From sequence record MG748547: a stretch of DNA of 64,000 nucleotides; one strand, given 5' to 3'. Made by a program: the position numbers and the translations under genes. Of the stretch, positions 8,376 to 30,185 are shown one piece after another; position 1 is the first letter of the stretch, and the number at the start of each line of letters is the position of its first letter. The notes under the pieces were generated by a model that was not told the origin of the DNA, did no database searches, and saw only the letters and a list, made by a program, of their open reading frames with translations. The DNA comes from Escherichia phage EP75.

Positions 8376-8385
8376 TTGTCACCTC

Positions 8386-10328: not shown

Positions 10329-10340
10329 GGCATCTTCTCC

Positions 10341-11309: not shown

Positions 11310-11345
11310 GGTCTGAAGCCCTTTAATTAGAATAGAGTGATGACA

Positions 11346-11354
11346 CTATTTAGG
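11346..11354 (-). promoter_or_regulatory. late-promoter-like motif CCTAAATAG
   Basis: Resembles T4 late promoter TATAAATA; upstream of baseplate operon start at 11309. Confidence 0.4.
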
Positions 11355-11362
11355 ACTAGAAT

Positions 11363-12103
11363 ATGGCTATGTATCTCGTATACCAAATTACCAATCTGAT
11401 AAACAATAAAATATATGTTGGGGTTCATAAAGGAACTCCAGATGATGGTTATATGGGTTCTGGCCGAGTTATAACAAGAGCGATATTGAAATATGGTGTT
11501 GAGAATTTTCGCAAAGATATATTGAAAGTTTGTAAAACATCAGAAGAAATGTATGAAGAAGAATTCAGGATAGTGAATCAAGAATTTATAGATAGAGATG
11601 ACACATATAATTTAACATGCGGTGGGCGTGGTTCATTTACGCACATAAATTCGGATCCATTAATCAGGGCCAACGCTTCGGAGAAGGCTCTCAAAACCCT
11701 AAGTTTAAAATCAAAAGACGAATTACAAAGAATTTACAAATCTAGGGGATTTCCTGGAGAAAGAAATTTTTGGTTTGGTAAAAACAGGTCCGGTGAAAAT
11801 AACTCAAGATTTGGCTATGTAATGGAACAAGAAACAAAGGACAAAATAAGAAATTCCAACAAGAAAAGAGTGGAATCCGGCCTCGTGGATTATTCTAATT
11901 GCAAAGGACCAATCACAAAAGAAGGGAAGAACGCAATATCCCAAGCGAACTCCAGAGAATTCAAATTTGTTAATCCAGAAGGAAATTTGGTCACAGTTAT
12001 CAACCTTTCCAAATTCTGTAAAGAAAATGAATTGAGCGAAGGATCTATGAGACATGTCCATAACGGCCGAAACATACAACATAAAGGTTGGAGGAAAGCA
12101 TAA
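11363..12103 (+). CDS. GIY-YIG homing endonuclease (Seg-like)
   Basis: N-terminal 'YLVYQITNL...KIYVGV' GIY-YIG motif; basic C-terminal DNA-binding region; sits between divergent structural genes. Confidence 0.75.
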   Translation: MAMYLVYQITNLINNKIYVGVHKGTPDDGYMGSGRVITRAILKYGVENFRKDILKVCKTSEEMYEEEFRIVNQEFIDRDDTYNLTCGGRGSFTHINSDPLIRANASEKALKTLSLKSKDELQRIYKSRGFPGERNFWFGKNRSGENNSRFGYVMEQETKDKIRNSNKKRVESGLVDYSNCKGPITKEGKNAISQANSREFKFVNPEGNLVTVINLSKFCKENELSEGSMRHVHNGRNIQHKGWRKA

Positions 12104-12723
12104 TGGCATCGTATTTACAAGGAAAATTTATTCCCAACAATCCTCAAAAATATGTCGGAGACGTAAAAGATATTGTGTTTCGATCCTCTTTAGAATTGGT
12201 TGCATTCAAATTCTGTGACATGAATCCTGCTATCGTGAAGTGGGGTTCGGAAACTTGTGTAATCCCTTACATATCTCCGGTTGATGGCCGCGCCCATCGT
12301 TATTTCATGGATTTGAAGGTTTGGACTCGTCGGCAGGATTCCGATGAATTACAAATTACTCTTATTGAAATAAAACCCAAAGACCAGATTAAAGAACCTC
12401 GCAAAACTAAAACGATGAAGGAATCAACATTCAATAATTCAATGCGCACTTGGTTGGTAAATCAGGCAAAGTGGACAGCAACTAAAGAACATTGTGCAAA
12501 GGTAGGTTGGAAATTCATTATCTGGACAGAAGAACATTTGGTGCCAGGTGAAGACCCAGAAGTTAAAAAACAATTTGCTCTTCGTTCTAAGAAAAAGCGC
12601 GAAGTCGAAATGGAAGATCGACGCCGCGCTCAAAGGATTAATGCGTTGAAAGAGCAAATGAAGAAGGAAACTGCTAATAAACAACCAACGCAATCGGAAG
12701 ATGATGGTTTGTTATTACCCTGA
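12103..12723 (+). CDS. head completion protein (T4 gp4-like)
   Basis: ATG at 12103 with GGAGGAAAG ribosome-binding site; 'YVGDVKDIVFRSSLE...VIPYISPVDG' resembles gp4 as recalled. Confidence 0.65.
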   Translation: MASYLQGKFIPNNPQKYVGDVKDIVFRSSLELVAFKFCDMNPAIVKWGSETCVIPYISPVDGRAHRYFMDLKVWTRRQDSDELQITLIEIKPKDQIKEPRKTKTMKESTFNNSMRTWLVNQAKWTATKEHCAKVGWKFIIWTEEHLVPGEDPEVKKQFALRSKKKREVEMEDRRRAQRINALKEQMKKETANKQPTQSEDDGLLLP

Positions 12724-12933
12724 TTTCCTTGGATGTCCAGGGGCAAAGCAAGTTTGTTTGTCCCTGCATATCATCCATCCATCAGCACGGGCTTGTCTAG
12801 CACAGTCTCCCCAAGATTCACCAGCATAAGACTTCATCCCACATCTGGGGTGATGTTCTTGCCAAGCCCAATTACAAGATTTGCATTCAACACACTCACA
12901 ATACAAATCGACGGTGTATCCTGCAGTAATCAT
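12715..12933 (-). CDS. small Cys-rich protein (72 aa)
   Basis: Nine cysteines; co-oriented with neighbouring minus-strand genes. Confidence 0.35.
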   Translation of the reverse strand: MITAGYTVDLYCECVECKSCNWAWQEHHPRCGMKSYAGESWGDCARQARADGWMICRDKQTCFAPGHPRKSG

Positions 12934-13341
12934 TTAGTCACCCAGATGATCATAAATTTTTTGACGGAATTCGTTCCCTTTAGCACAACCTGTAGCCAAC
13001 AGGCGAGTACCGCCCGTACCAATAACACTGATGGTCGAAAACTTCAGGATACGGCCTGTAATAGACTGGTCCACCTTAATGGTTTCTACTTTACCAAGAC
13101 GGAGTTCATCAGCATCACGACGAATAAATCCCCGTTTGACAATAACACGCTTGTTGGTGACTGCGAATTCAGTTGTCAATACATTTAAAATTGTTGGTAT
13201 CAGAAATAACAAGCTGAATCCAAATGTTGGGATAATCGTTAAAATAACCAGAACATAAATCCAAAAACCGCTCCACCAAGTCGGGCGGGTGAAAGCGATG
13301 ACATGTTCATTTTCGCCGAGCATGCGGTCTACATAACGCAT
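12934..13341 (-). CDS. membrane protein (135 aa)
   Basis: Two predicted transmembrane helices then a soluble domain. Confidence 0.5.
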   Translation of the reverse strand: MRYVDRMLGENEHVIAFTRPTWWSGFWIYVLVILTIIPTFGFSLLFLIPTILNVLTTEFAVTNKRVIVKRGFIRRDADELRLGKVETIKVDQSITGRILKFSTISVIGTGGTRLLATGCAKGNEFRQKIYDHLGD

Positions 13342-13342
13342 T

Positions 13343-13864
13343 TTAATTCCTTACTTTGTCTGGGTTGGATAAGATTTGTTCGTATCCGACTTCGCCTTGA
13401 TCGTCGAAAACATGCTGAAGAATCGCCATATCGTCTACCATCCGATAAACTTCAATTCCAGCGTTCATCAATTTTTTGATTCCATCCATGATACGATATG
13501 GCTCTTGATAATATACTTTATCGATCTTGCCGTTGTCGATGATCTTCTGAGTGCAATCAGGGCATGGGCTATGTGTCACAAACATAACCAACCCTGTGAA
13601 ATCATCTGCATTTTCGGGGATACGCATTAGAGCATTTTCCTCCGCATGAATGACACACGGGTTTGTAACAATTTGCCCGTGTTGTTCCATCTCACAAACA
13701 TTCGGCATGCCAGGAGGCGTTCCGTTCCATCCGATAGCCACAGGCTGATCAGTTTCAGGGTTTACGATAACACAACCGACTTGCAGACGCCGAGCATAAC
13801 TGGTTACACCATATGCTGCAGCTGATCGCATATGGGCGAACATCATTCGTGGTTTGATAGCCAT
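13343..13864 (-). CDS. dCMP deaminase (zinc-dependent)
   Basis: 'HAEENAL' and 'SPCPDC' (H-A-E / PCxxC) deaminase zinc motifs. Confidence 0.8.
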   Translation of the reverse strand: MAIKPRMMFAHMRSAAAYGVTSYARRLQVGCVIVNPETDQPVAIGWNGTPPGMPNVCEMEQHGQIVTNPCVIHAEENALMRIPENADDFTGLVMFVTHSPCPDCTQKIIDNGKIDKVYYQEPYRIMDGIKKLMNAGIEVYRMVDDMAILQHVFDDQGEVGYEQILSNPDKVRN

Positions 13865-14181
13865 TATTTTACCAGAGCCTTTTCAAGTAAAAAGATCATG
13901 TCATCCTGGTCGGCGCGGCCAAAGATCTGACCGAGGGACACCATGGAATGAACCTCTTTGACAATCAGGTCTTTGCCTGTTACACCGCTGTTGTCCAATT
14001 CGAGAATTGTAGACATGCGCTCAACCATATGAGGTGGATGATTGATATAACGTTGAAGATACTTTTCACGCAACGCAATTTTTTCGATAAGATCTGACAT
14101 TTCTGCATTCTCTTCTGAATACAGACGTTCTTTAGATTTCAGTTCTTCGAGGCGTTCGTACATTTCTTTTAATGAAATCAT
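13864..14181 (-). CDS. hypothetical protein (about 106 aa)
   Basis: Start re-assigned to ATG 14181 (GGGAGAGA ribosome-binding site) because a terminator hairpin lies inside the longer track ORF. Confidence 0.45.
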   Translation of the reverse strand: MISLKEMYERLEELKSKERLYSEENAEMSDLIEKIALREKYLQRYINHPPHMVERMSTILELDNSGVTGKDLIVKEVHSMVSLGQIFGRADQDDMIFLLEKALVK

Positions 14182-14204
14182 GTTTGTCTCTCCCAATAAA
14201 TTAA

Positions 14205-14223
14205 GGGGAAGTATACCTTCCCC
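14205..14223 (-). terminator. intrinsic terminator hairpin
   Basis: GGGGAAG-GTATAC-CTTCCCC stem-loop followed by T-rich run on minus strand. Confidence 0.6.
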
Positions 14224-14244
14224 TTTCTTCAATAACCTAAAATA

Positions 14245-14595
14245 TTATTCAGTACATGCTTTACCGAGGTCTGTAAGCCTATAGAATGTTACTTCAGACT
14301 TCGGCCAATGCTTATACTCTTCAGAGTTGTCATGAACCATTGTAAACGCAGGTTCTATCAGACCTTTAGACAACAAGGATTGACCTGAACGCGTATCCCA
14401 TGGATCACCCTTTACAGAACGAAACCCGCCAGATATCGGTGGCGCATGAAAAGTCCAAACCGTTTTCCCTTTATCGTTCGTCCAAGATTTGGGATTGAAA
14501 TACCAATGACAAAGGCGTCTGGCTTCACCTTTTTCAAAATTCAACATTCCTAAAAGGACGCAGAGTTGATGTCCTGTGATTCTTGGCTTTTTCAT
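14245..14595 (-). CDS. hypothetical protein (116 aa)
   Basis: ORF co-oriented in operon. Confidence 0.5.
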   Translation of the reverse strand: MKKPRITGHQLCVLLGMLNFEKGEARRLCHWYFNPKSWTNDKGKTVWTFHAPPISGGFRSVKGDPWDTRSGQSLLSKGLIEPAFTMVHDNSEEYKHWPKSEVTFYRLTDLGKACTE

Positions 14596-14963
14596 AATAT
14601 ATCTCTCTTCTTCAACATGCGTTCCACCTCTGGCCAGTTCACGCAGGGGCGATTGGAAACTTCATCCCATACCAGAGGGCAGCCAAGAGCGGCGTCGTCG
14701 ATGTAAACCTGGGCATATGCCTTTGGAGACTCCGTCCAAGTCTTCTGTGATGGGTTTGTATTAACTCCATACAGAGGGATGCCACGGACATGGAACCAGG
14801 TTTTCGCTTGCTCCAATTCCGCACCAGAACGCATCGTGAACAAAATCAGCTGATGCCCTTTGGCAACGAGCCTCTTCAGGCAGGCATCAGCACCGATGTC
14901 CCGCCCGACCTTTGGGTATTCGTGGGTCACACAAGTCCCGTCAAAATCCACTGCAATGATCAT
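14592..14963 (-). CDS. HAD-superfamily hydrolase-like protein
   Basis: N-terminal 'IAVDFDGTC' matches HAD motif I (DxDGT); 'YIDDA' near C-terminus. Confidence 0.5.
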   Translation of the reverse strand: MIIAVDFDGTCVTHEYPKVGRDIGADACLKRLVAKGHQLILFTMRSGAELEQAKTWFHVRGIPLYGVNTNPSQKTWTESPKAYAQVYIDDAALGCPLVWDEVSNRPCVNWPEVERMLKKRDIL

Positions 14964-15292
14964 AAGATCCCCAAGTCAGTAAGGTAACGATAAAACAAGA
15001 TTATAGACAGAAATCCAATTAACACCCAAGACGACAGGATGGGCTTGCAATTTAGCGTAGTCTTTCCATTGGGTATGTTGGGACTTCCAGTAATAACAAC
15101 CGAATCCGTTTTAGCTCTCAGCGTCATGACAGAACCCATGAGGATGATTGGGCGCACATAATGCCCTTCATGATTGCGCTTCACGATACATGGTGAAGAA
15201 AATCGCAGGAACGGATCACCGCTTTTATAACCAAATAACTCGACCTTTTGTATTTCTTCGGGTACTTTCTGACCAGGAAAGAATATTTTCAT
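14960..15292 (-). CDS. hypothetical protein (110 aa)
   Basis: Start/stop overlaps with neighbours. Confidence 0.45.
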
Positions 15293-15849
15293 AGCACAAT
15301 TCCTAAATTTGTGTATAACAACTCAGCCAGGGTTACAGGACGCTTGAATTGTTCCCAACTGCAGTTCAGGTATTCGCGCTCTTCGCGAATATTTTCGTGA
15401 AGATGACCATGGATATTATACGCCCAACGGTCTAATTGATAAGGAACATGTGTTGTCAACACACGGCCAACAGGCGTGTCACGTTCATACATAGCGCCGA
15501 AGGAGCTAATCCAGCCGTCCAGATACAGAGACAACAACATCTTAAAGCTGTCATGGTTGCCTTGTGCCACCCTGATGATAAAGTTCGGACGCCAGTCATC
15601 GGGAACGGGGCGGCGTTTGAACTCATCAATGTTTCGCTTGGCACCCTCTCGCATCAGGCGAATGAACCCTTCAGCCCCGATGAAGCATATATCACCAGCC
15701 AGTTCAAGAACGTCCCGAGACTTCAACCCCTGAAAGATACTGTCAATGACCGCAGCGTCATGGGCTTCCTGTGTATCAAATCCACGCGGTTTAAAGACCT
15801 TCTTATGCCCAAGATGAGTGTCACCAAGGTGCTTTACAATTCCCGCCAT
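15289..15849 (-). CDS. metallophosphoesterase (calcineurin-like)
   Basis: 'GDTHLG', 'GNHD', 'GHLH' motifs; start re-assigned to ATG 15849 (GAGGAAA ribosome-binding site, TAATG overlap). Confidence 0.65.
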
Positions 15850-16190
15850 TATGGTTTCCTCAGCCATTCTAAAATCGGCACTTTCACAAACCCTTTATGC
15901 CAACGATGCGGTTTGTGACCTCTATTATATTCGAGCAAACACGTGTCTGGTGGGACACTGAAGTGGATGCCTTCGATGTCGTAGTAATGTCCGTCAATCA
16001 GAGTATACACATGACCTTCGATCTGGCTGTAATGGATCTCTGCTTGAGGATACACATGCTTCAGAACCAGAGCAACCTGATAGCACTTTCCGTTCTTCCC
16101 AACATACTCAACATCCACCTGTTGTGGGAAGACGTCTTTGATAAGATTTATCAATCTCGTGATGTCATTTACAACAACTGAACGTTTCAT
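15849..16190 (-). CDS. hypothetical protein (113 aa)
   Basis: ORF in operon. Confidence 0.45.
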
Positions 16191-16192
16191 CT

Positions 16193-16855
16193 CTATGATA
16201 ACTCATGGCGATGTCGAACACACGCAGGACAATCACAATTCTTTTTCAAAATTGGCAATTCACACCATGTCATTAAGTCATGTATTGGGGACATGTGATG
16301 ATAGAACCAAGATTTCTTGAGACTAATCAATGGATATAAAATTTCAATAGATCTTTCCCCGTCTCTGGTCATCATGTTGTATCCTTCAATAACTTTATTA
16401 AAGGCGGGTATCCAGTGTATTGCGTCATCGCCGTTAACATATGCCAAGATATACGTGGAAGGCAAGCCACTGCCTTTAAATTGCGTGTTTAATAACCATA
16501 TCGGGGCTTGTGCTAAACAAGCGCGAAAACCACCGTTCGGGACGTTGATGCTACTGATAGGTTCTTGATGATGTGTCCAACGATACATGAGAAGTGGGGC
16601 ATTTTTATTAATCCAGTTGTATATTTTATTCCTCGCCCAATTTTCGCGTTTAGATTTAAATTTATTATTTTCGAGGTGGCAATACACAGTATGAACTGAA
16701 TATCCTTTCGATAGCAACCAAATCAACATGTATGTGCTATCCACCCCACCAGACCAGAACAACGTCACTTCTTGATTATTCTGCGGCAATGGAGCATCCC
16801 CTTGAAGAACACGGTATACAAAATCACAATCAGATATTGAGACAACAATTTCCAT
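16193..16855 (-). CDS. QueC-like PP-loop ATP pyrophosphatase
   Basis: 'LFWSGGVDSTY' PP-loop and C-terminal 'CDCPACVRHR' zinc motif as in QueC. Confidence 0.55.
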   Translation of the reverse strand: MEIVVSISDCDFVYRVLQGDAPLPQNNQEVTLFWSGGVDSTYMLIWLLSKGYSVHTVYCHLENNKFKSKRENWARNKIYNWINKNAPLLMYRWTHHQEPISSINVPNGGFRACLAQAPIWLLNTQFKGSGLPSTYILAYVNGDDAIHWIPAFNKVIEGYNMMTRDGERSIEILYPLISLKKSWFYHHMSPIHDLMTWCELPILKKNCDCPACVRHRHELS

Positions 16856-17151
16856 TAAAATATTCCTCTTAAAGAATCATTTATCCTGCGCAATTCGTTT
16901 TCCACTTTTATCTTCATATTTTTATCGTCGTTCACGAAAATCATTTTATCTAAATCTTCGCCATTAATCTTTGTATAAAAATAAATGTCATGCTCAAAGA
17001 AAATCGTTTTTCCAACAGAACGCATGGCAAAGAACGTTGCAATAGTTCTTGGTAAAGGTTTGAATTTAATGGCATTGAAACGCAAAGCCTGATAGAGAGG
17101 TTTTAATGTTCCTAAGCGAATACAATGCTGGATAATTTCTTGCTCTTTCAT
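16855..17151 (-). CDS. hypothetical protein (98 aa)
   Basis: ORF in operon. Confidence 0.45.
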   Translation of the reverse strand: MKEQEIIQHCIRLGTLKPLYQALRFNAIKFKPLPRTIATFFAMRSVGKTIFFEHDIYFYTKINGEDLDKMIFVNDDKNMKIKVENELRRINDSLRGIF

Positions 17152-17206
17152 TTGTTGTGCGCCATAAAGATATGATGGTACAATGATAATACATTATACA
17201 AATAGA

Positions 17207-17226
17207 AAAGCCCCTTTCGGGGCTTA
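17207..17226 (-). terminator. intrinsic terminator (possibly bidirectional)
   Basis: AGCCCC-TTTC-GGGGCT hairpin flanked by T/A runs on both strands; overlaps the 17224 stop. Confidence 0.6.
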
Positions 17227-17514
17227 TTTGTCTTCAGATTCGTATAAACGCCAATTGCCGATGCTAAACCACTCCCCCACATTATTTGAATATCTGGTTG
17301 TTCGGACTCCTCCGACTTCATACGCCCATTTGAAGAATTTCCATTTGGACGATAAAGAAGGACATTCGCTTCCGGATTTCAAAGAACACGCTGTGAGCCA
17401 ACGCGTAATACTGAGAGCCTGAAAAATCGGATGGATAAATGAAGAATACAATATCCAAAGCGTTATGGCAACAAAAACAATGGTCGTGATCACCCCGACA
17501 ATTTGAAAGAACAT
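17224..17514 (-). CDS. small membrane protein (96 aa)
   Basis: N-terminal hydrophobic helix. Confidence 0.45.
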   Translation of the reverse strand: MFFQIVGVITTIVFVAITLWILYSSFIHPIFQALSITRWLTACSLKSGSECPSLSSKWKFFKWAYEVGGVRTTRYSNNVGEWFSIGNWRLYESEDK

Positions 17515-17590
17515 TTAAGAACCTCCAAAATATTGAACACAGACTATGAAGAAAACTATGATTGTAAACAACCATGAAACAAGGAAAGAT

Positions 17591-18223
17591 TCATCCTTCC
17601 ACCTTCAGCCCCATCAGGTCTTCCATGGTTTTCTGAATGCGTAGCCAGTCAAGCGCCGCATCATAACGAGGGTCATGATAGATCATACCTTCCAGTTCCC
17701 ACGCCTTGATACCAGCATATCGATCCTGCTGCCCAATACCCTTCAGCCAGCTTACGATGTCAAATGTGTGGTGATAGTCCCAAGGTTCGTTGGAATCTTG
17801 CTTACACGTCACCTCAATGATGTGCTGAGCCTTGCGTAGGTCAAACAGATTCCTATCACACCAGTCAACCGATCGCGGGTCGATCCCAAGGCGATGGCAT
17901 CCCTTGCGAATTTCATCGGCCAATTTGAAAATAGAAATATCCTTGTCGGTCGGATATAGACTGATAGCTCGGGCGGCGTCGCACGGGTTGCGTTTACCTG
18001 TACCCAGCCACCATTCCACAGTGCCCTGGTCTTTCACACGGCCAAGTTCAATCTGTTCTTTGACATCCAGTTTGATAAATGTCGTGCGCTCTACAACAAG
18101 CTGCTGAAGAGTATAACGCTTGGTCAGGTCGGCGATAGTCTGTGCCCAAGACAACATGACAGCATCATCCCAACGACCGAGAGTTTCGCTATCAGCGACG
18201 GCCAAGAAATTAGATTTATACAT
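17591..18223 (-). CDS. DEDDh 3'-5' exonuclease (T4 DexA-like), putative
   Basis: 'FLAVADSETLG' (exo motif I) and 'YHDPRYDAAL' (motif III H/D). Confidence 0.55.
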   Translation of the reverse strand: MYKSNFLAVADSETLGRWDDAVMLSWAQTIADLTKRYTLQQLVVERTTFIKLDVKEQIELGRVKDQGTVEWWLGTGKRNPCDAARAISLYPTDKDISIFKLADEIRKGCHRLGIDPRSVDWCDRNLFDLRKAQHIIEVTCKQDSNEPWDYHHTFDIVSWLKGIGQQDRYAGIKAWELEGMIYHDPRYDAALDWLRIQKTMEDLMGLKVEG

Positions 18224-18560
18224 CAGTTTCCCCTGCTTTCTCTAAAAGGAGTTTCAAAGGATATGTCCCACAAGCGGTGGCATACTCGACTTTGAAATAT
18301 GAATTATCGTTCATGGCGAAATTGCGATGTGGGAAATATTCCCCGTCATCCAACCCGCCTAATCCCCCGCCGACGCGATATTGTTTTAACTCGACTTCGC
18401 CGCCATAACGGAGTTGGGCATATAGGCCGATAGGAGCGCGAACGTAATGCTCCAGCCATACCCAATTTCCATCGTGTAAACGTGTAGGGATAAATGCAAA
18501 ACGCACCTTGGGATGAAGAACGGCTTTGGCGAGCATCTCTTCTGTTATTTCACGCTTCAT
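18216..18560 (-). CDS. hypothetical protein (114 aa)
   Basis: ORF in operon. Confidence 0.45.
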   Translation of the reverse strand: MKREITEEMLAKAVLHPKVRFAFIPTRLHDGNWVWLEHYVRAPIGLYAQLRYGGEVELKQYRVGGGLGGLDDGEYFPHRNFAMNDNSYFKVEYATACGTYPLKLLLEKAGETDV

Positions 18561-19177
18561 CCAATACCTTCCTCTTCGATGATATCTTCTTCACTAGCGA
18601 CGACAGAGATTCCGTAGTCTACCATCTGGGAAAGTTCTTGTAAATCTTGTTCAAACCCGTCACCCTGTCGGATATAAAAGACGGGTACGACACGACGCCT
18701 GGTATCTTCGAAGATAGTCTCCGCGATTTTATTAATCTGACTCACCACGTGAAACAGTTTTAATCCACCGATGCCACAGCCGATGGCGGGTAAACCAACA
18801 TAGACTGTTTCGTCAGTTTTTGCCTCAATGATATCGTGAACTTGTTCAAACATAATCTGAACTGAACTGATAATGGAAGGCATGCGTGCGTTAGGACCAG
18901 GGTAGAACTGAGTATACAAATTGAATCCCCAGACACCAGTGTCATGATCAAACGCATAGGACATGTTCCCCAAACGTTGTTCCGGACCACGTTCATCTAA
19001 TTGGTCGGCTCGGTAAATTTCTGGGAAATCTAATCGAACATGGTTGGCGATACCTGCGCCCATCACAGACCAACAATTTGCTCCATGAGCGAAAGCATTG
19101 ATGAGATTAAAACTCGTAGCGGCTTTCAGTAAATCGCCGTTTGTGATAACATATGTGGTCATGCGTAACGTCTCCAT
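18557..19177 (-). CDS. macro domain protein (ADP-ribose binding/hydrolase), putative
   Basis: 'VITNGDLL...INAFAHGAN..MGAGIA' and 'GLPAIGCGIGGL' resemble macro domain signature motifs. Confidence 0.55.
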   Translation of the reverse strand: METLRMTTYVITNGDLLKAATSFNLINAFAHGANCWSVMGAGIANHVRLDFPEIYRADQLDERGPEQRLGNMSYAFDHDTGVWGFNLYTQFYPGPNARMPSIISSVQIMFEQVHDIIEAKTDETVYVGLPAIGCGIGGLKLFHVVSQINKIAETIFEDTRRRVVPVFYIRQGDGFEQDLQELSQMVDYGISVVASEEDIIEEEGIG

Positions 19178-19395
19178 TGTATAATTTCGTTGTTGACACA
19201 GCTAACCTGGATGATACACATATTCTGGCGATGGTCAGTGAGTGTCATAATAAAACTGTCTGTCTGTGCCATAACACAATTGACAGATATTCCTCGCATT
19301 ATCAAACGAACACAGATTTCTTGATATAATCGTTTCATGTATCCTGAAACTGAAGCGGACTCATACACGCGTTCAAATTCATATAACTCGTTCAT
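19159..19395 (-). CDS. hypothetical protein (78 aa)
   Basis: ORF in operon. Confidence 0.4.
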   Translation of the reverse strand: MNELYEFERVYESASVSGYMKRLYQEICVRLIMRGISVNCVMAQTDSFIMTLTDHRQNMCIIQVSCVNNEIIQWRRYA

Positions 19396-19616
19396 TTATT
19401 CAGACCATCAATAGCGTGTTCAGAAATATATTCAACGAATTGGTTATCAGCTGCCATCTTTAAAAGTTCAAATAATTCCGTTCCAACGGTACTCCCAAAC
19501 ATCCCTTCCAATACACCCTGAACATCTTCATCTATTTCTTCGATGACGAGTCCATACGATTTCAGGCGGCGTGAAATAGCACGGAACTGGGCAATATCAC
19601 CAATTTCATTTGCCAT
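19392..19616 (-). CDS. hypothetical acidic protein (74 aa)
   Basis: ORF in operon. Confidence 0.4.
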   Translation of the reverse strand: MANEIGDIAQFRAISRRLKSYGLVIEEIDEDVQGVLEGMFGSTVGTELFELLKMAADNQFVEYISEHAIDGLNK

Positions 19617-19665
19617 GTTATTTGTCTCATTATGGGGTTAGGCGGCAATTATACCGCCAATTTAT

Positions 19666-20079
19666 TCAATAGAGGTCTTCGGAAAAGAGTTCTTTGAAAG
19701 GAGTGTTCTTCAAACGGACCTGATTAGTTTGTCCGGCTTCACGAGCGACCACAGCAGCCTCTTCACGGGACATCCATTGCCCATAGTTATCAATAAACCC
19801 TTGTTCACGAGTGTGGGTGGTTTCGATAATACCTGCTTCCTTCAATCGTTTGAGTTGCGTGTTCATCAATTTGTCGTGATGTCGGGCGCTTACAACGATC
19901 ACATCACCATATTTGTTGGCAGCAGCCACAACACGCCGATCAAACTTGGTTGGGTCAGGTATATCACGAGTATACAAGGCGATGTGAGTGTCGTCCACGT
20001 CCCCTTTCACCTCAGAATATAACTGACACCCATTAGGAGATCCAGTAGGTAAAGAACGAAAATATCCAAGTAATTTCAT
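19666..20079 (-). CDS. hypothetical protein (137 aa)
   Basis: ORF in operon; no confident motif. Confidence 0.45.
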   Translation of the reverse strand: MKLLGYFRSLPTGSPNGCQLYSEVKGDVDDTHIALYTRDIPDPTKFDRRVVAAANKYGDVIVVSARHHDKLMNTQLKRLKEAGIIETTHTREQGFIDNYGQWMSREEAAVVAREAGQTNQVRLKNTPFKELFSEDLY

Positions 20080-20082
20080 AAT

Positions 20083-20442
20083 CTAATCTATCCATATTTC
20101 AGGTTCGGGGATATCAACCATCTCCACCGTTTGATTCTTTAATTCGTGGAAACAGTCACCAAGGAATTGTAATTTACCATCAGTCAAGAACAAATGACAA
20201 CGACTCGCCGGATCAGAATGATTCACCAACAGACTAGGAGTGAAAGTCGGTGATTCGAGATCGTGATTCCATTGCCATATTGGGCCAGGCGTTTGCCCTG
20301 AAATGCGATAAGGATGAAGCATATTACATCCAGGACAATGAAAATATATGGAACCACCCATTGATAATAATTTTGGAGTCAATAATTTTGACATATCACG
20401 CCTCCACTTCTTCATCAGGATTGTATGGGCGTAATTCTCCAA
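20083..20442 (-). CDS. hypothetical protein with CxxC motif (119 aa)
   Basis: 'CPGC' motif plus downstream Cys/His. Confidence 0.45.
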   Translation of the reverse strand: MENYAHTILMKKWRRDMSKLLTPKLLSMGGSIYFHCPGCNMLHPYRISGQTPGPIWQWNHDLESPTFTPSLLVNHSDPASRCHLFLTDGKLQFLGDCFHELKNQTVEMVDIPEPEIWID

Positions 20443-20707
20443 TTAACTTAGGGAAGAGGGCAAACCCGAACAGATTAAAAGAACGCATGGTCCCAACCAT
20501 ACCAACATCATCCAATTCGGTAACGTCAGAAAGGGCACACAACGGTATCCACACGTCTTCTTGTCCTTCGTAATTTACGAAGGCAACTTCCTCTTTAATA
20601 AAACGAGGGCATAAGATATCGAACAACCAATAGAAGAAAGTCAGCAATGAGAGACTGCGGAAATATACAAACATGGTGAACCCCTTGCTTGTTTGGAGGG
20701 AATTCAC
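20396..20707 (-). CDS. small membrane protein (about 100 aa)
   Basis: Hydrophobic N-terminus; 3' end overlaps next gene. Confidence 0.4.
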   Translation of the reverse strand: MNSLQTSKGFTMFVYFRSLSLLTFFYWLFDILCPRFIKEEVAFVNYEGQEDVWIPLCALSDVTELDDVGMVGTMRSFNLFGFALFPKLIGELRPYNPDEEVEA

Positions 20708-20716
20708 CCTCCGGAT

Positions 20717-22042
20717 TTATAGGCCCAATGCCTTTTCAAGATCATCTAAATCTTCAGTATAAAGATCGATGTCTTGCTTATTATTTAATTCTTCTCGTTG
20801 AACTTCTAAATTCTTTATCTGGTTCAACAAACGTTCACGTGCGTCTAACGTAATTGATGATAAAGACATCTTGAATAAATCATCGAGATCGCCATCAAAA
20901 TCAGGATAGTCTGTCTGGAATAACGCTTTCAGTTCCGTGAGGCTCCGGCGCATATCTGTAACGACAGCCCACCCAATGAATATGGCACGATTGTTCAAAC
21001 GGTGTATTTTGTCGGTCAATTCCTTGATAAGATACTGACGTCTATCTTCATAGCGACTCAGGCGATAATTGAAAAATGGAAGCAACATGTCTTTCCAACC
21101 ATCATAACGGTGAATAACACCATCTTCATCCCAAGCTGTCCACACGGGCTTATTAGCTGAGTAGAGACGGAACATCTGTTCAACCTGTTCGTCATTCAAC
21201 TTAGACAATTCACCCCGCTTGAATACAACAGTGATATCCCAACCATCTTCGGTCGTATCGTTGGCGTACTCAGTGAGGACACCCGCCTTGTACAGGGGCA
21301 ACAGCACTTTGGTCTCATAGGTTTTAGAGAACCAACCAATAGGAACCTCGGTGATGTTCAAAGTGGTTGCATTAACGCGGGTGAACAAACCACGGCTGTA
21401 TGCTCTTCCTTCCTCAGTATAGCCCGTTTCTCCTTTGAAACCATTCCAGTACGGTTTTAAGTCTTTCGGGTCTTCGCCACGGAGAAGCGCTCTCAGGGCA
21501 CTGAGCACGGACTTAACGGAATGGCATGGGGTGTCGGTGGCATAACCGGAGCCGATACCATTGATACCATTCACGAGAAACATGGGCAGGATGGGTAAAA
21601 AGAATTTCGGCTCTAGTTTCTCTTCCCCAAGATAATTGTATTCCAATATCCCATCGTCCTCCTTTCGGAAGATTTTACGGATAACTTCAGACACTGCCAC
21701 TGAAATATAACGAGCGGAAGACGCTTCGCGCCCCATGATTGAACCAAACTGTCCGTCGCGGTCAAAGTATGGGATGTTATTCGTACCTGGGAACCCCTGA
21801 GCCATGTTCACAATAGTGCCGCTCATGTTCTCGCCACCAGATTTGTAGTTGGTGCGGGCGGCGGCGAACATGCCAAGGCGGTCAACGATCTCCTCCTTGT
21901 TGTACTCAAGAGCAGCAAAGAGGATCTTGCGCTGGCTGGGCTTGAGGCTGTCGATCAGTTGAGGGATTTGACGGATGCTGTTGACCACAGAGAACTCCTT
22001 GTGGTCACCATTTATGAAATCCGTCACGGTAATAGTCGTCAT
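20717..22042 (-). CDS. DNA topoisomerase II medium subunit (gp52-like, GyrA-like)
   Basis: 441 aa; 'KPSQRKIL' DNA-breakage segment characteristic of type II topoisomerase A subunit. Confidence 0.8.
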   Translation of the reverse strand: MTTITVTDFINGDHKEFSVVNSIRQIPQLIDSLKPSQRKILFAALEYNKEEIVDRLGMFAAARTNYKSGGENMSGTIVNMAQGFPGTNNIPYFDRDGQFGSIMGREASSARYISVAVSEVIRKIFRKEDDGILEYNYLGEEKLEPKFFLPILPMFLVNGINGIGSGYATDTPCHSVKSVLSALRALLRGEDPKDLKPYWNGFKGETGYTEEGRAYSRGLFTRVNATTLNITEVPIGWFSKTYETKVLLPLYKAGVLTEYANDTTEDGWDITVVFKRGELSKLNDEQVEQMFRLYSANKPVWTAWDEDGVIHRYDGWKDMLLPFFNYRLSRYEDRRQYLIKELTDKIHRLNNRAIFIGWAVVTDMRRSLTELKALFQTDYPDFDGDLDDLFKMSLSSITLDARERLLNQIKNLEVQREELNNKQDIDLYTEDLDDLEKALGL

Positions 22043-22488
22043 TTATCGTATCCCCCTAAATTAAATACGTCCACTTGGTAATCGACCAACCAAGATACCA
22101 GTTTAATCGCTTGTTCCGATTCATCTGATTCATCAAGAGTGTAATATGGTTTACCCGTCCCTTTAAGCGGGTCATACACCACCAATTTACCATCTCGAGT
22201 GTCCAACAATATCTGATGTAATATGCCAGGGGAAGTCAGGGAAGGGGCGACCAGGACATAAACATAATCGTGATAAATCGTTATATTTTGATTAGCCCCA
22301 CGCCCAGCTATAAATGGCACACCATTGAGATGCAGTGCGTCACCAATAGTCATCTCAAATGATTCGAATGAATCATGGAATTCGTCAATAACATTCTGTA
22401 CAGGGCGGTCGAGAATCATGGCCAAACACGCAGACATACAAGTGTTGCCTGTCGGTTGTTTTTGGTGTACTAATGGATTCAAAACCAT
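22039..22488 (-). CDS. papain-like cysteine peptidase, C39-like, putative
   Basis: 'QKQPTGNTCMSACLAMIL' (Q...C..A.LAM), 'HDYVYVLV' (His) and downstream 'DGKLVVYDP' (Asp) match the C39 catalytic arrangement; start set to ATG 22488 (GGAAGGGG ribosome-binding site). Confidence 0.5.
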   Translation of the reverse strand: MVLNPLVHQKQPTGNTCMSACLAMILDRPVQNVIDEFHDSFESFEMTIGDALHLNGVPFIAGRGANQNITIYHDYVYVLVAPSLTSPGILHQILLDTRDGKLVVYDPLKGTGKPYYTLDESDESEQAIKLVSWLVDYQVDVFNLGGYDK

Positions 22489-22489
22489 C

Positions 22490-24403
22490 TTATTCCCCTT
22501 CCGTTTCAAATAGGCAAACGTCGCTAAACCAGGTTTTGCGGTAGTCGGCGGCCTCATCACCGAAGCCATTCTTCAGTGACTGTTGATAGCCATCGTCCAG
22601 CGTGACCGTCGTAGTATACGCATCCAGGTTGTTTAGAATACGCTTGAAGTCTTCAGTGCTGTTACCGCCAAGACCTTTCAGATATTTATTCTTCGTGATC
22701 TTCTTGGCGTCAGGTGTCTTCAGGAACTCCTCATACTCGGTGTTGTTCATGAACTCATGCATCACCTTACCACACCACACGCGCATGTATGGAGTACGAA
22801 GGAGCTTCAGCCTACCCTGACGAACGTATTCAGGCCAGAACGTACAATACAGAGTTATTAACAACCCACGGATATGAATGCCGTCGTCATCCGCGTCTGT
22901 TGCCACGACGGTCTGTGGATAGCGACTGATATCAAGCGGCTGGCCTGGCACAGCACCGCCGTGAATGGTGCATAAATTCTTGAATTCTTCGTTCGCCATC
23001 ACCTTTGAGCGCGGGGCGTTCAGGCAGTTGATGAACTTACCACGAAGCGGGAACAAACCAATTTTCTTGGTATCACGAGCGTTCAGGATAGGGTTGGATG
23101 CGCTATCACCTTCTGTCAGTAGCAGCGAACACCCACTGCGGTCGCCTCTGGCGGTCGCCGGATAATACTTCTCAATCTCACGATAATCCCGTTTGCTGAT
23201 ATCCTTCTTCGCCTTTTCAAATTCGGCATCTTCTTGTTCATTGCGTAATGAAGCCAGTTCTTTACTCAGCCCTGCTGTCACGAACTCAAGCGCCTTGCGA
23301 ATCAGTTTATCGCTGGGCTTGTAGGACGTACCAAACTGGCTCACAGGAGTCGTCATGCGCTCCTTGGTCTGGCTGTCAAAGCGAGGGTTGTTGATGTCGG
23401 CGGCGATGAACAATGACATGTGGTTCTTGATCATCGCTGGCTTCAGTTCGGTCTTGAACTTCTTAACCAGCTGAGGGCGTATAGCCGCCACGATCTGGTC
23501 AGCAACATAATCAACGTGAGGTCCACCGATGTGCGTGGCGATTGAGTTCACGTATGATGCATGCATGAACGCACCAGATGAGGGAGTGATAGCAACAGAC
23601 CAATCATCCGTTTCATCAACAGCCGAGCCAGCGTAGAAGTAATCAACGAAATGACCAAATCGATCAATGCGGATTTGCTTGCCGTTGAGAACAACCTTCA
23701 GGCGCGGGTTGCATGCCGCCACTTCGAATGCACGACGGTAAATCATGAGCAGGTTGTTCTGGTCAAGCCCCTTAACACCCAGGCGCGCATAATCAGGGAT
23801 CCAGGCAATAGTGGTGCCGAACTCTTTCGGTGTATTGCCGATGACCGGATTGGACTTCTTGCTCATGTTGTCTTCAAACAGCTGAGTATAAGACTTCTTG
23901 CCGTCACTGGTAGCAACGCGGAACCACTTTGAGAACACGTTGACGAGCGAAGCCCCTTCACCGTTCTGGCCGCCGGACTTCTGGTTGTTGTACTCCTCGT
24001 CCTCATCGTTGAAGTTGCTGCCCGCATAGAGCGAGCCAAACAACATCTCAGGGAGCCACTCATTGGTGACGCCATGCTTGACCACAGGGATACCCCCGTT
24101 GTCAGAAACGATGATTTGACCGTTCATAGGGGAGACCGTGACGGTGATTTCCGTCAAGCCTTTACCCTCAGGGGTCTTGCTGTGGTCAACACAGTTGGTG
24201 ATGATTTCATCAAACTGTTTGATCAGCGCAGGGGAGTACTCAAAGTTGTCACGGAAGATGACTTTGTCTTTGGTTGGGTCATACACCCACACCGTCCCCA
24301 CAGACGAACGGATACTGCCCAGATGACGCTCTGGGCGAAGTAGGATATGCTCTATGTGAGTGAGCTTTTTGTATTTGCGTTCAATATCAATTTTGTTGGA
24401 CAT
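22490..24403 (-). CDS. DNA topoisomerase II large subunit (gp39+gp60 equivalent, fused)
   Basis: 637 aa; GHKL ATPase N-terminus and TOPRIM 'LLLTEGDSAS' in one uninterrupted ORF. Confidence 0.85.
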   Translation of the reverse strand: MSNKIDIERKYKKLTHIEHILLRPERHLGSIRSSVGTVWVYDPTKDKVIFRDNFEYSPALIKQFDEIITNCVDHSKTPEGKGLTEITVTVSPMNGQIIVSDNGGIPVVKHGVTNEWLPEMLFGSLYAGSNFNDEDEEYNNQKSGGQNGEGASLVNVFSKWFRVATSDGKKSYTQLFEDNMSKKSNPVIGNTPKEFGTTIAWIPDYARLGVKGLDQNNLLMIYRRAFEVAACNPRLKVVLNGKQIRIDRFGHFVDYFYAGSAVDETDDWSVAITPSSGAFMHASYVNSIATHIGGPHVDYVADQIVAAIRPQLVKKFKTELKPAMIKNHMSLFIAADINNPRFDSQTKERMTTPVSQFGTSYKPSDKLIRKALEFVTAGLSKELASLRNEQEDAEFEKAKKDISKRDYREIEKYYPATARGDRSGCSLLLTEGDSASNPILNARDTKKIGLFPLRGKFINCLNAPRSKVMANEEFKNLCTIHGGAVPGQPLDISRYPQTVVATDADDDGIHIRGLLITLYCTFWPEYVRQGRLKLLRTPYMRVWCGKVMHEFMNNTEYEEFLKTPDAKKITKNKYLKGLGGNSTEDFKRILNNLDAYTTTVTLDDGYQQSLKNGFGDEAADYRKTWFSDVCLFETEGE

Positions 24404-24452
24404 CGGCCTATCCCGTCAATGGTAAACACACAAGATTATGTATGGGGTTGGC

Positions 24453-25031
24453 TTATAGACCAAATTTAGTGCGCCATTTTTCCACTTTGTGTTCTATGGC
24501 ATGTTCCACTTTAACGATCGTGTTGATATGGTTTTGATTATATCCACACGCCAATTTGGCAGTATTGCGTATCAGATTTGAAACCAGGTCCACCATATTA
24601 TCTTCTGAACGTTGAGGTTGGTTCAGTAAACGAGTGATGCGGCCTTTGTAATGATTAACCATCGCAAGATATTTGTCTATAGTTTCAACACCACTGCAGA
24701 ACCAATAATCCTCCAACGTATGTTGGCTGAGATCAGTTGTGTGATTGGCCGTAGCCAAAGCAAACACCATGGAGTCAAAGATTTCTTCTTTGGTCATAGA
24801 CCCATGTTGTTGAACTTGTTGATAATCCACAACATATAATAGATCCAGAGCCGAGATGATAACGTCCGCCACTTCACCGTTCAGGGGTTCGGATGCAGCG
24901 ATTCCATAAAGCACATCTGATAGTTCACAAGACTCTTCCACGAGTTTGCAATATACAAACACAGGAGAACGATTAGGATCGCGCTGGCTGAGTTCATATG
25001 ATGTGTTGAAGATAGTTTTTAGAAAATTCAT
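24453..25031 (-). CDS. MazG-like nucleoside triphosphate pyrophosphohydrolase, putative
   Basis: 'KLVEESCELSDVLYG...EVADVIISALDLL' resembles MazG/HisE EExxE...D helix motifs. Confidence 0.45.
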   Translation of the reverse strand: MNFLKTIFNTSYELSQRDPNRSPVFVYCKLVEESCELSDVLYGIAASEPLNGEVADVIISALDLLYVVDYQQVQQHGSMTKEEIFDSMVFALATANHTTDLSQHTLEDYWFCSGVETIDKYLAMVNHYKGRITRLLNQPQRSEDNMVDLVSNLIRNTAKLACGYNQNHINTIVKVEHAIEHKVEKWRTKFGL

Positions 25032-25528
25032 TTCAAATATCCTTCTAGACGGAAGCGGTTAATATGCTGTATGATAAAATCCATAGAGTTTTGAAAACTG
25101 TATTTCCCCTGATGCTCATATGCATGAATAAGGGGAAGACGGCTGTGGGCCAATTGGAATCTCAACTTGGATGGCATTGTCAGCAATTTTTGACTCGTCG
25201 CTGCGATAATGTCTCGTTTAAATTTGGGATCATCAGGGGACAATACAACGATGCGTGACTTGGCCAGGGTTTGTCCAAATTGCTTGGCGTCGTTCCCGTA
25301 AAGACTACGCAAGTCGTCGTGGCGATATTTTAGCCAATACCAGTAGCCTTCTATTGAGTTGAAATTACCATCAACAGTATCCATGGGATGGTATGCAAAA
25401 TGGGAAAGGAATCTGCCTAGTTCTGTGCGACTTCGACTGTATATGTTGTAATGGGTCTTACCTTCACTATCCGGCGTCATACGTTCTTTTGGAACATTGA
25501 GTAATGGGAGCATGATATAGGGTCTCAA
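25028..25528 (-). CDS. NADAR (YbiA-like) domain protein, putative; exact start uncertain
   Basis: 'FLSHFAYHP...DGNFNSIEGYWYWLKY' resembles YbiA 'FSNFA...DGKTWPTSEHYFQAQKF' as recalled. Confidence 0.45.
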   Translation of the reverse strand: MRPYIMLPLLNVPKERMTPDSEGKTHYNIYSRSRTELGRFLSHFAYHPMDTVDGNFNSIEGYWYWLKYRHDDLRSLYGNDAKQFGQTLAKSRIVVLSPDDPKFKRDIIAATSQKLLTMPSKLRFQLAHSRLPLIHAYEHQGKYSFQNSMDFIIQHINRFRLEGYLK

Positions 25529-25794
25529 ATCAAAATTGCTGTGTGTGTGTGTTAAATCAGATCTTTTTGTACGCTTTCAAAGCACTAATAACCGAGACGC
25601 CGCCAAATAGAACTAACAATATGAATCGTTCCATCCTGAAATCAGGAAGGGAAAGCAGTCCCACAAGGCTGTCTAAAGCAATCATGAACGTTACTCCAGT
25701 CAGCATGCCCAACTTAAAGGAGTTGGAACCTCTTTTGCAACGTAGCATAAATCACCTCCGATTCAAATGGGGAGTTCTCTCCCCACACAGATAT

Positions 25795-26304
25795 CTAGCC
25801 CAGAAACACTACTAAAGTCAAATTTGTGAGACTGGTCCGAGCATCCTGCAACATTTCACGGGCAGCGGCTAAACGTTTTACATCATGTAGAGTGTCAGAG
25901 AACACGATTATGTTAGCCTTATCGATCCTGGTCCCCATGAAATGGGTGATTGTCGTCGTGCTCTCTTTCTTGTCGACATCAGGGATAAGTAATTCTTCGC
26001 CCGTCTGAGGGTTGCGGGAAGGATAGAAGAATGCATCACGTTCACGAGAAGTATGGAAGACGCCAAACACATATGCATCGTTTTCGACCTGAAACTTTTT
26101 AGAAAGTAGTTTCTTCAGAGCGGCTGTATGTCCGGTCTGGCGGAGCATTCTGTAGTAGAGCATGTTGCCGGAGCAAATAGGGTCTATCACTCCCCTAATT
26201 TGACGTTCCTTTTGTATCTCATACGCATCTGCCACAAGCTGCTGGATCATATCGACATGGGCATTCATGGAGATTTCTATTTTACGTTTGATCATAGATT
26301 GCAT
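25795..26304 (-). CDS. hypothetical protein (169 aa)
   Basis: ORF in operon. Confidence 0.5.
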   Translation of the reverse strand: MQSMIKRKIEISMNAHVDMIQQLVADAYEIQKERQIRGVIDPICSGNMLYYRMLRQTGHTAALKKLLSKKFQVENDAYVFGVFHTSRERDAFFYPSRNPQTGEELLIPDVDKKESTTTITHFMGTRIDKANIIVFSDTLHDVKRLAAAREMLQDARTSLTNLTLVVFLG

Positions 26305-26370
26305 TTGGTATATCCTCAGTTAGGTTCCGCTCATGGGGAACGGGTCCATTATACACCCAATGCTGGAAAT

Positions 26371-26393
26371 GAAAAAGAGGCCGAAGCCTCTTT
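26371..26393 (-). terminator. intrinsic terminator
   Basis: GAGGC-CGAA-GCCTC hairpin with T-run on minus strand. Confidence 0.55.
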
Positions 26394-26613
26394 AATCGTC
26401 GTATTGGCCTGTCCTGAAATTCCATTTTCGCGCCTTGGATAAATCCAAATCTTTGAAAATGCTGCCAAAGATCTTTTTAAAATCAGACTCTTCTTCAAGA
26501 TCTTTTGGTTTTTTGACAGGCTCCTTAACCATACCGCCTTCGGGTTTCCCCACATCGGCGGTCGTGGTTGCCGGAGCAGAAGAGTCTTCAAGGAAATCCT
26601 GGAAGCTCTTCAT
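26392..26613 (-). CDS. hypothetical Lys/Glu-rich protein (73 aa)
   Basis: ORF in operon. Confidence 0.4.
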   Translation of the reverse strand: MKSFQDFLEDSSAPATTTADVGKPEGGMVKEPVKKPKDLEEESDFKKIFGSIFKDLDLSKARKWNFRTGQYDD

Positions 26614-26616
26614 AAA

Positions 26617-27426
26617 TTACACCACAGCCATTTCACAACGAGTAGACGTGACAGAATGGCCATCTGCATCAGAAACAACACACCAATATTCGCCTTCATT
26701 TGCGGCTTCAACTGCTGTGATAACCAGGTTAGCAGTGGCGGCGGTGGCATTAGTGCCAGCATCGATAACTGACCCCGCACCCCCAGGAGTATCAGAGAAA
26801 TGCCACACATAAGTGTATGGAGTTGTACCGCCCGCAGCAACAACACTAAAGGTTCCGTCTTGTCCAGAAGTCACGTCTTTGGTGGCAGGTAAATCAGTCG
26901 ACAGCGATAGAGCGCCTGCAACTGTAATAACCGTAGAATCTGTGTGATTCCCTTCAACCGTGACACCATAAACCGTTACAGTTCCTGAAGCCAGCAATTT
27001 GAATTTACCACCACCGACATGTACAGCTTTCGTAATATCACCAGAATACCAATTAACGCCTTGATATGTGGCATTGGCAGGGGATACCGTCGCTAGCAAT
27101 TCAACAAATTGTCCGACCTCTCCGCTGGCTGTAGCTGGAGTAATCACAAGTCCGGTGGTTAAAATGGCATTCGGATCGTGGATTTCATAAGATACTTGAA
27201 AGCCGATAGGCTTGGTGGGATCCACTTTGGTGACACCGTCCGCTTGTAAATTGCTCTTGGTGAGCAGAGCGTCAAGACCTTTACATTCGGTCAGGATCTC
27301 ATCAGGATCTTGGTTGAGGCTGGTCTTTTGCCAACCCTTTGCAACACCCGTCACGACATGATTGCGTTCGGTTTCGGGTTTGTTGCGGACAACTTCCGGT
27401 GCGACTAATACTGTGATTGTTGGCAT
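26617..27426 (-). CDS. Ig-like domain protein (two Big_2-like domains)
   Basis: Start at ATG 27426 (GGAGGAAA ribosome-binding site); Thr/Val/Gly-rich beta-strand repeats, 'YGVTVEGNHTD', 'EGEYWCVVSD'. Confidence 0.5.
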   Translation of the reverse strand: MPTITVLVAPEVVRNKPETERNHVVTGVAKGWQKTSLNQDPDEILTECKGLDALLTKSNLQADGVTKVDPTKPIGFQVSYEIHDPNAILTTGLVITPATASGEVGQFVELLATVSPANATYQGVNWYSGDITKAVHVGGGKFKLLASGTVTVYGVTVEGNHTDSTVITVAGALSLSTDLPATKDVTSGQDGTFSVVAAGGTTPYTYVWHFSDTPGGAGSVIDAGTNATAATANLVITAVEAANEGEYWCVVSDADGHSVTSTRCEMAVV

Positions 27427-27797
27427 GGTTTCCTCCACTCATCCAAATCGTTGTTCAGAGCCATCATCAGCTCATTATCTGGTTCGTATGAACCGGAACA
27501 TAAATCATCTCGCCAAACTCCTAACGTCAACAGCGCTGCTTTAAGACGAGGATGTTGGTTCTTATCCGTTTTCAACACCAACATTCGGCACACGGCTTCG
27601 GTTTCAAAGGTATTGAAAAGAATAATCAATTGGTTGATAAGTACGCGAGGACTTTTCCCTGGCACAAATCTTTTCAATGATTGATTAATTAGCGAAATTC
27701 GCTGAATGTCTACCATCAAATCATCTCTTGAGACACCAGGGGTGATATAATGTCTTAGAGCGTACTCCATCAAATTGCTTTCGTCAACGATAGCCAT
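27405..27797 (-). CDS. hypothetical protein (130 aa)
   Basis: ORF in operon. Confidence 0.45.
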   Translation of the reverse strand: MAIVDESNLMEYALRHYITPGVSRDDLMVDIQRISLINQSLKRFVPGKSPRVLINQLIILFNTFETEAVCRMLVLKTDKNQHPRLKAALLTLGVWRDDLCSGSYEPDNELMMALNNDLDEWRKPCQQSQY

Positions 27798-27829
27798 ATT
27801 GAATTATAATCAGCAGTTATACACTGGGA

Positions 27830-28517: not shown

Positions 28518-28530
28518 ATTCACCTCAAAG

Positions 28531-28556
28531 AAAAGGAGGCCGAAGCCTCCCTTTTA
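28531..28556 (-). terminator. intrinsic terminator, likely bidirectional
   Basis: GGAGGC-CGAA-GCCTCC hairpin with T-runs on both strands, just downstream of rIIB-like gene. Confidence 0.6.
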
Positions 28557-28569
28557 TATCCATTTACAC

Positions 28570-30153: not shown

Positions 30154-30185
30154 CTTGTAGTTCTCACTGTGGGGTAATGGGGCTA

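Follow-up and report, generated by a model that had tools for sequence, protein, structure and literature searches.

The 64,000-nucleotide stretch analyzed here (the window) comes from Escherichia phage EP75 (MG748547), and our subject is four genes lying between positions 13343 and 25031, encoding a dCMP deaminase, a small HAD-type phosphatase, an exonuclease resembling T4 DexA, and a MazG-like nucleoside triphosphate (NTP) pyrophosphatase. A preliminary description had taken these genes as a set that excludes a canonical dNTP and feeds dUMP into a modified-pyrimidine pathway, and had concluded that the genome replaces thymine. The window belongs to a ViI-like Kuttervirus (Ackermannviridae) and is a segment of a mosaic genome: positions 1-13000 are 97.1% identical to PhiSH19, positions 13000-25500 are 99.8% identical to Salmonella phage aagejoakim (283 phage records match), positions 25000-45000 are 96.1% identical to aagejoakim, and positions 45000-64000 are about 92% identical to ViI-like phages. 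It starts inside a primase-helicase gene, holds tail and baseplate genes, a leftward early block and the DNA polymerase gene, and ends at the tailspikes.

All four open reading frames (ORFs) are on the minus strand at the positions first assigned to them, and they are kept across hundreds of phage genomes. They are not clustered, being spread over 11.7 kb with approximately 25 other early genes between them, including those for both topoisomerase II subunits. Gene order throughout the block is identical to that of ViI, from which the window differs by three additions: the HAD gene at 14592-14963, a DUF6527 gene, and an ORF between the topoisomerase genes. Compared with ViI, the MazG-like and NADAR-like proteins are 73% and 70% identical, whereas their neighbors are 89 to 99% identical. 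Scanning 12.5-26.5 kb for promoters and terminators was uninformative, with 33 promoter-like sites against 28.7 expected. Taking the explanation developed below as a whole, we consider it very probable that the span 13343-25031 is nothing more unusual than the leftward set of early/middle genes carried by a ViI-like Kuttervirus, running from rIIA/B through topoisomerase II to dCMP deaminase.

The assignment of a dCMP deaminase to 13343-13864 (minus strand, 173 amino acids) was confirmed by family, structural, and motif matches, and by orthology with ViI. The protein matches PF00383 (5e-17; 62 bits against a gathering cut-off of 25 bits) and PHROG 174 (4e-64), and its translation carries the zinc-binding and catalytic motifs HAE and PCxxC as H73-A-E75 and P100-C-P-D-C104. 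It is closer to the dCMP deaminases than to other members of the fold, with all four PDB matches being deoxycytidylate deaminases, led by a solved cyanophage dCMP deaminase (4p9c, 1.7e-31) and including T4 Cd (1vq2, 7e-13). Identity is 97% to ViI Vi01_030 and 33% to the deaminase region of Acinetobacter phage SH-Ab 15599 (hereafter 15599), which is also classified in the Ackermannviridae. In the accepted scheme, phage dCMP deaminase feeds dUMP to the hydroxymethylase (PMC8989533), and a dCMP deaminase was among the 15599 enzymes co-expressed in E. coli (PMC13458397). The EP75 homolog probably supplies dUMP to the phage dUMP hydroxymethylase, and it is the only one of the four genes with a supported place in the thymine pathway.

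The DexA assignment was likewise upheld. The 210-amino-acid protein encoded at 17591-18223 (minus strand) aligns over its full length (residues 6-207) with the T4 DexA 3'-5' exonuclease at 25% identity (E 1e-10), and it matches a solved exodeoxyribonuclease (PDB 8kel, 1.4e-5) and PHROG 255 (1e-53); no match was found in Pfam. In the alignment, ADSET stands opposite IDFET and YHDPRYDAALD opposite AHDSIHDCAKD, and the acidic and histidine residues that are kept form what we take to be the DEDDh signature. The ViI counterpart is 95% identical, and 15599 also has a DexA homolog. This is a generic T4-like early exonuclease gene, and since it is common to T4 and 15599 it is uninformative on which base is replaced.

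For the small HAD protein (14592-14963, minus strand, 123 amino acids), the family was correctly named, although the plural "HAD phosphatases" was not warranted, as the interval holds a single ORF. The DxDGT motif occupies residues 6-10 (D6-F-D8-G-T10), and residues 1-99 match the solved BT0820-type protein PDB 2obb (5.8e-15). The match to NCBIfam NF046079, the BT0820-family HAD phosphatases, is 3.4e-25, but its 89 bits fall under the 165-bit cut-off, which suggests a relative and not an equivalog of that family. The ORF had no match in Pfam and is labeled "phosphoheptose isomerase" in RefSeq; our literature search on BT0820 function found no functional data. No homolog was found in ViI, where the flanking genes abut at the syntenic site, or in 15599. 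Distribution within Kuttervirus is patchy, with 26 Salmonella-phage records compared with 164 for the MazG-like gene, and relatives occur in unrelated crAss-like, Lak, Ralstonia jumbo, and Enterococcus phages, as well as among thousands of bacterial and metagenomic proteins (7776 homologs). This distribution marks the HAD gene as an accessory gene outside the core thymine pathway. It could be a polynucleotide 3'-phosphatase, or another repair or sugar-phosphate phosphatase, instead of a nucleotide-pool enzyme, and we regard this as a tentative but real possibility. The patchy occurrence and the wide bacterial spread of the family favor it, and the crAss-like phage relatives, at 52 to 53% identity, stand under "polynucleotide kinase/phosphatase" annotations. 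However, these labels are annotations only, and a capless HAD protein of 123 amino acids could accept small nucleotides.

The label "MazG-like NTP pyrophosphatase" for the 192-amino-acid product of 24453-25031 (minus strand) held for motif and fold but was not matched by any curated hidden Markov model. The protein belongs to PHROG 1247 (1e-40), and no family in Pfam or NCBIfam, including MazG and dUTPase_2, was detected at E <= 0.01. Residues E32, E33, E36, E53, and D56 are invariant in an alignment of 18 homologs and constitute the EExxE...ExxD metal-binding motif (EExxE-(12-28)-ExxD in the superfamily). T10, S11, Y12, R21, H127, R131, N137, Q138, R141, and W186 are further invariant residues. 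The AlphaFold (AF2) model (pLDDT 92) has the four-helix-bundle fold of the solved all-alpha NTP pyrophosphatases, with the dimeric dUTPases nearest, and "dimeric-dUTPase-like" is the better-fitting label. Relative to small MazG proteins, there is an extra helical insert, approximately 90 residues long, in which the motif LNQPxR is invariant. Searched against the PDB by sequence and by profile, the protein matched only MazZ, its nearest solved relative by sequence, and not significantly (E 0.16-0.57); this MazG-like pyrophosphohydrolase of cyanophage S-2L (PDB 7ody) has 111 amino acids and lacks the insert. MazZ acts on purine nucleotides.

The family is small, with 33 representatives at E < 1e-3 among 1.84 billion proteins; about 10 of these are full length, the others being MazG-like proteins of approximately 100 amino acids that match the N-terminal helices only. 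By tblastn it was found in Ackermannviridae records only (270). Four distant full-length relatives whose context was looked up lie on Ackermannviridae-like contigs with the same synteny (rIIB, a gene for a 159-174-amino-acid protein, the MazG-like gene, then the topoisomerase II large subunit), and one of these contigs also carries HMUD2 and ADDT. A literature search on Ackermannviridae and MazG found no functional data. Conservation of the metal-binding residues and confinement to these phages identify a putative lineage-specific NTP pyrophosphatase with its catalytic residues intact.

The genes that are diagnostic for thymine replacement lie elsewhere in the window. The chemistry of the lineage is established in its relatives: CBA120 fails to incorporate 3H-thymidine and has a "thymidylate synthase" that clusters with dUMP hydroxymethylases (PMC3184105), while 5-NeOmdU stands in place of approximately 40% of thymidine in ViI, CBA120, CBA6, and 1.255.O (PMC5889632). 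In ViI, DNA is first made with 5-hydroxymethyldeoxyuridine (5-hmdU) fully replacing T, and the modification is then built by gp67 and gp243 (5-hmdU DNA kinases), gp247 (serine:DNA transferase), and gp226, a pyridoxal phosphate (PLP)-dependent decarboxylase (PMC8989533). The kinase activity of gp243 and the function of gp247 were demonstrated in ViI, with the gp226 decarboxylase completing 5-NeOmdU (PMC8989533). Orthologs of three of these proteins are encoded on the minus strand of the window. The gene at 37971-39206 encodes an amino acid:DNA transferase (aGPT-Pplase2/ADDT; PF18724, 2.5e-57) 91% identical to gp247, and the gene at 39963-40868 encodes 5-hydroxymethyluracil DNA kinase 2 (HMUD2; PF18747, 7e-150), 86% identical to gp243. 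A PLP-dependent enzyme encoded at 48532-49857, with an uncertain start codon, is 98% identical to gp226 over 395 amino acids, and its Pfam PALP match (4e-7) is below the cut-off. All three are outside the flagged span.

By its orthologs, this phage is inferred to make 5-NeOmdU. The claim of a thymine-replacing genome was right for the lineage, by virtue of the three ViI enzyme orthologs and the published chemistry, but it had been drawn from genes that are not diagnostic. T4, which replaces cytosine and not thymine, has dexA, cd, and gene 56 (dCTPase/dUTPase), and T4 and the ViI-like phages alike use a dimeric-dUTPase-type NTPase to exclude the canonical nucleotide. Which base a phage replaces cannot be read from its having dCMP deaminase, MazG-like, HAD, and DexA genes together; thymine replacement is reliably marked by genes for the dUMP hydroxymethylase, the 5-hmdU DNA kinase, and the amino acid:DNA transferase. 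Thymine replacement in ViI-like phages has already been published along with the chemistry and core enzymes behind it, and nothing new is added on the genome in this respect.

In the pathway known from the literature, dCMP deaminase produces dUMP, which the thymidylate synthase homolog converts to 5-hmdUMP, and a dNMP kinase together with host kinases raises this to 5-hmdUTP. A dimeric-dUTPase-type enzyme removes dTTP and dUTP, and the phage polymerase inserts 5-hmdU instead of T. After replication, the 5-hmdU DNA kinase, the serine:DNA transferase, and the PLP decarboxylase turn part of the 5-hmdU into 5-NeOmdU. The T4-type DNA polymerase gene, placed by the annotation of aligned reference genes, is at 42363-45461 (minus strand; 42363-45359 in the reference annotation), and a role in 5-hmdUTP incorporation has been described for the phage polymerase (PMC8989533). 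Between the 5-hmdU DNA kinase and polymerase genes is a gene for an NT5C-like HAD 5'(3')-deoxyribonucleotidase (41183-42025, minus strand; 260 amino acids from the annotated start, 41183-41965), with a match to PF06941 (2.2e-7) and a DVDLT motif. The protein is 98% identical to ViI Vi01_194 and 23% identical to an ORF of 15599 (E 1e-11); no solved relative was found by sequence. It is a candidate dTMPase, and a better one than the small HAD protein.

Which gene excludes dTTP is best approached through aagejoakim, where an operon approximately 1.7-5 kb upstream of the left edge of the window encodes 5-HMUDK1 (PF18748, 2e-113), a ThyA-like dUMP hydroxymethylase (approximately 3.3-4.4 kb upstream of that edge), a dNMP kinase, a dUTPase_2 protein (gp122, PF08761), and an ACT domain protein. 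Kutter et al. proposed that the "dUTPase/dUDPase" of this operon is also a dTTPase (PMC3184105). A 2026 paper reported that gp18 of 15599 hydrolyzes dTTP and dUTP and spares 5-hmdUTP (PMC13458397). The N-terminal half of gp18 is homologous to the Kuttervirus dNMP kinase (32% identity, 1e-19) and its C-terminal half to gp122 (29% identity, 3e-9), with the C-terminal domains of gp18 and gp122 both in PHROG 173, and the genes for gp18 and gp122 each directly follow that for the hydroxymethylase. As we read the alignment, gp122 keeps the Q and N named as base contacts of gp18. The gp122 type also occurs in PhiW-14, for which dTTPase activity has been measured (PMC5977210). The best dTTPase/dUTPase candidate is thus probably the gp122 ortholog, which would lie outside the window.

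The MazG-like protein shares with gp18 a fold class (dimeric dUTPase-like, all-alpha NTP pyrophosphatase), but no sequence or profile similarity was detected, and the Kuttervirus homolog of gp18 is gp122, of PHROG 173, whereas the MazG-like protein is of PHROG 1247. BLASTP of the MazG-like protein against gp18 and T4 gp56 returned no similarity (E 0.12 and 4.4). Its profile gave a probability below 1% against gp18, gp122, and T4 gp56 in hhalign, a weak negative given that the profile is shallow (Neff 2.2). A profile search for the family in the 15599 genome reached a best E of 0.35 among 515 ORFs. As 15599 is a T-hypermodifying phage without the MazG-like family, thymine exclusion is possible without that family. 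The MazG-like gene also lies between the NADAR-like gene and topoisomerase II, not beside the dUMP hydroxymethylase and dNMP kinase genes. The MazG-like protein is probably not the dTTPase, and our analysis sets the probable dTTPase/dUTPase, of the gp122 type, apart from a second, putative NTP pyrophosphatase, the MazG-like protein.

Several points weigh against this assignment of roles. The chemistry and the enzyme activities come from papers on ViI and 15599 proteins, and what we show ourselves is limited to sequence identity, fold, motif, synteny, and which genes are present or missing. The hydroxymethylase operon does not fall within the window, and its presence in EP75 is inferred from relatives, in which it was found in 352 of 352 matching records. 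Of the four residues named as base contacts in gp18, gp122 retains just two, the Q and the N, again by our own reading of the alignment. Lastly, the MazG-like protein combines a dimeric-dUTPase-like fold with conservation and synteny in the Ackermannviridae-like relatives examined, and it may have a pyrimidine dNTPase role in which the work is split with gp122.

A more general form of this last point is that the MazG-like protein, as an NTP pyrophosphatase peculiar to the lineage, has a new specificity, either dividing pyrimidine exclusion with gp122 so that one enzyme takes dTTP and the other dUTP, or acting against host defense together with its NADAR-fold neighbor. We think this unlikely, yet it would, in either role, add a new component to the thymidine-hypermodifying phages. 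The NADAR/YbiA-fold protein (25028-25528, minus strand, 166 amino acids) is encoded directly upstream of the MazG-like gene with a 4-nucleotide overlap.

About equally improbable is the related proposal that the MazG-like protein and its NADAR-fold neighbor, perhaps with a macro-like protein, serve host takeover or counter-defense by acting on ADP-ribose-derived or signaling nucleotides. The NADAR fold is clear, and the two genes not only overlap but remain adjacent even in distant relatives. No other genes of the block differ as much from their ViI counterparts, and high divergence is common for arms-race genes. The macro-like ORF, with its weak DarG match, is nearby. On the other side, 4-nucleotide overlaps are common throughout the block, so the coupling is unspecific, and gp122 also has divergent alleles. 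To our knowledge, NADAR and a MazG-type enzyme are not paired in any described system, and no defense-related family was matched, although PADLOC was not searched.

The macro-like protein itself (18557-19177, minus strand) is of the T4 Tk.4 type and matches the NCBIfam DarG DNA ADP-ribosyl glycohydrolase at 2.5e-9, far under the cut-off. DarT-type toxins ADP-ribosylate thymidine, and the presence of macro-like and NADAR genes together in a T-modifying phage may merit attention.

The joint role put forward in the preliminary description, in which the MazG-like protein would be the dTTP (or dTTP/dUTP) pyrophosphatase, the HAD protein would remove dTMP, DexA would supply nucleotides, and dCMP deaminase would feed dUMP, fares worst. 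It has in its favor that the genome is of the T-replacing kind, that the metal-binding residues of the MazG-like protein are intact, that the protein's nearest folds are in the class of the proven dTTPase/dUTPase gp18 (PMC13458397), and that it is a conserved core gene product of the lineage. Against it, the MazG-like protein lacks detectable similarity to gp18, gp122, and T4 gp56, the true gp18 homolog is encoded elsewhere, beside the hydroxymethylase, and 15599 excludes T without the family. The closest solved relative, albeit by a non-significant match, is MazZ, and the N-terminal helix of the MazG-like protein has no counterpart to the Q-x3-N pair for base recognition in gp18 and gp122, in our own reading and with no reliable alignment to guide it. 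The HAD gene is not in ViI, and DexA is generic, which leaves dCMP deaminase as the part of the claimed set that stands. We accordingly judge it unlikely that the four genes jointly exclude a canonical dNTP, and equally unlikely that the MazG-like protein is the thymine-excluding enzyme.

A third "MazG-like" protein of aagejoakim, gp050 (287 amino acids, NC_049503 48296-49159), is encoded outside the window next to regA and the clamp loader genes. It matches PHROG 2144 and 671 and had no match in Pfam; hhalign of the EP75 MazG-like profile against it found nothing, a weak negative with the same shallow profile (Neff 2.2). We considered gp050 as a homolog of the aGPT-Pplase1 protein, ORF7 of 15599, and rejected it, as BLASTP found no similarity and gp050 falls in separate NTP pyrophosphatase PHROGs. 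The Kuttervirus lineage has three NTP-pyrophosphatase-like genes, just one of which has a characterized relative.

Other features of the block were recorded in passing. The DUF6527 ORF (20083-20442, minus strand) is not in the ViI block and shares 53% identity with an ORF in 15599, a distant Acinetobacter phage; together these suggest an exchanged accessory gene. A 176-amino-acid ORF (22039-22569, minus strand) between the genes for the topoisomerase II large and medium subunits had no match in Pfam, and ViI, whose two topoisomerase genes overlap, essentially lacks it. The ORF at 16193-16855 (minus strand) encodes a QueC-like PP-loop ATPase (Pfam QueC, 4e-5; PHROG 1550, 9e-82), and two distant Ackermannviridae-like contigs have genes with faint or weak QueC Pfam matches in the equivalent place. 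No homolog of this ATPase was found in 15599, and no further 7-deazaguanine genes were seen near it. Among the small ORFs between 17151 and the DexA gene, a GC-rich hairpin at 17208-17225 has flanking T-runs on both strands, resembling a bidirectional terminator.

Outside the block, a SegE-like GIY-YIG homing endonuclease gene (11363-12103, plus strand) lies between the baseplate tail-tube-cap and head-completion genes, in a stretch that does not align with aagejoakim and in which PhiSH19 has a "putative homing endonuclease." The stretch 50534-53193 likewise has no alignment with aagejoakim, and it contains genes for tRNA-Tyr, tRNA-Asn, and tRNA-Met at 51918-52733 (minus strand).

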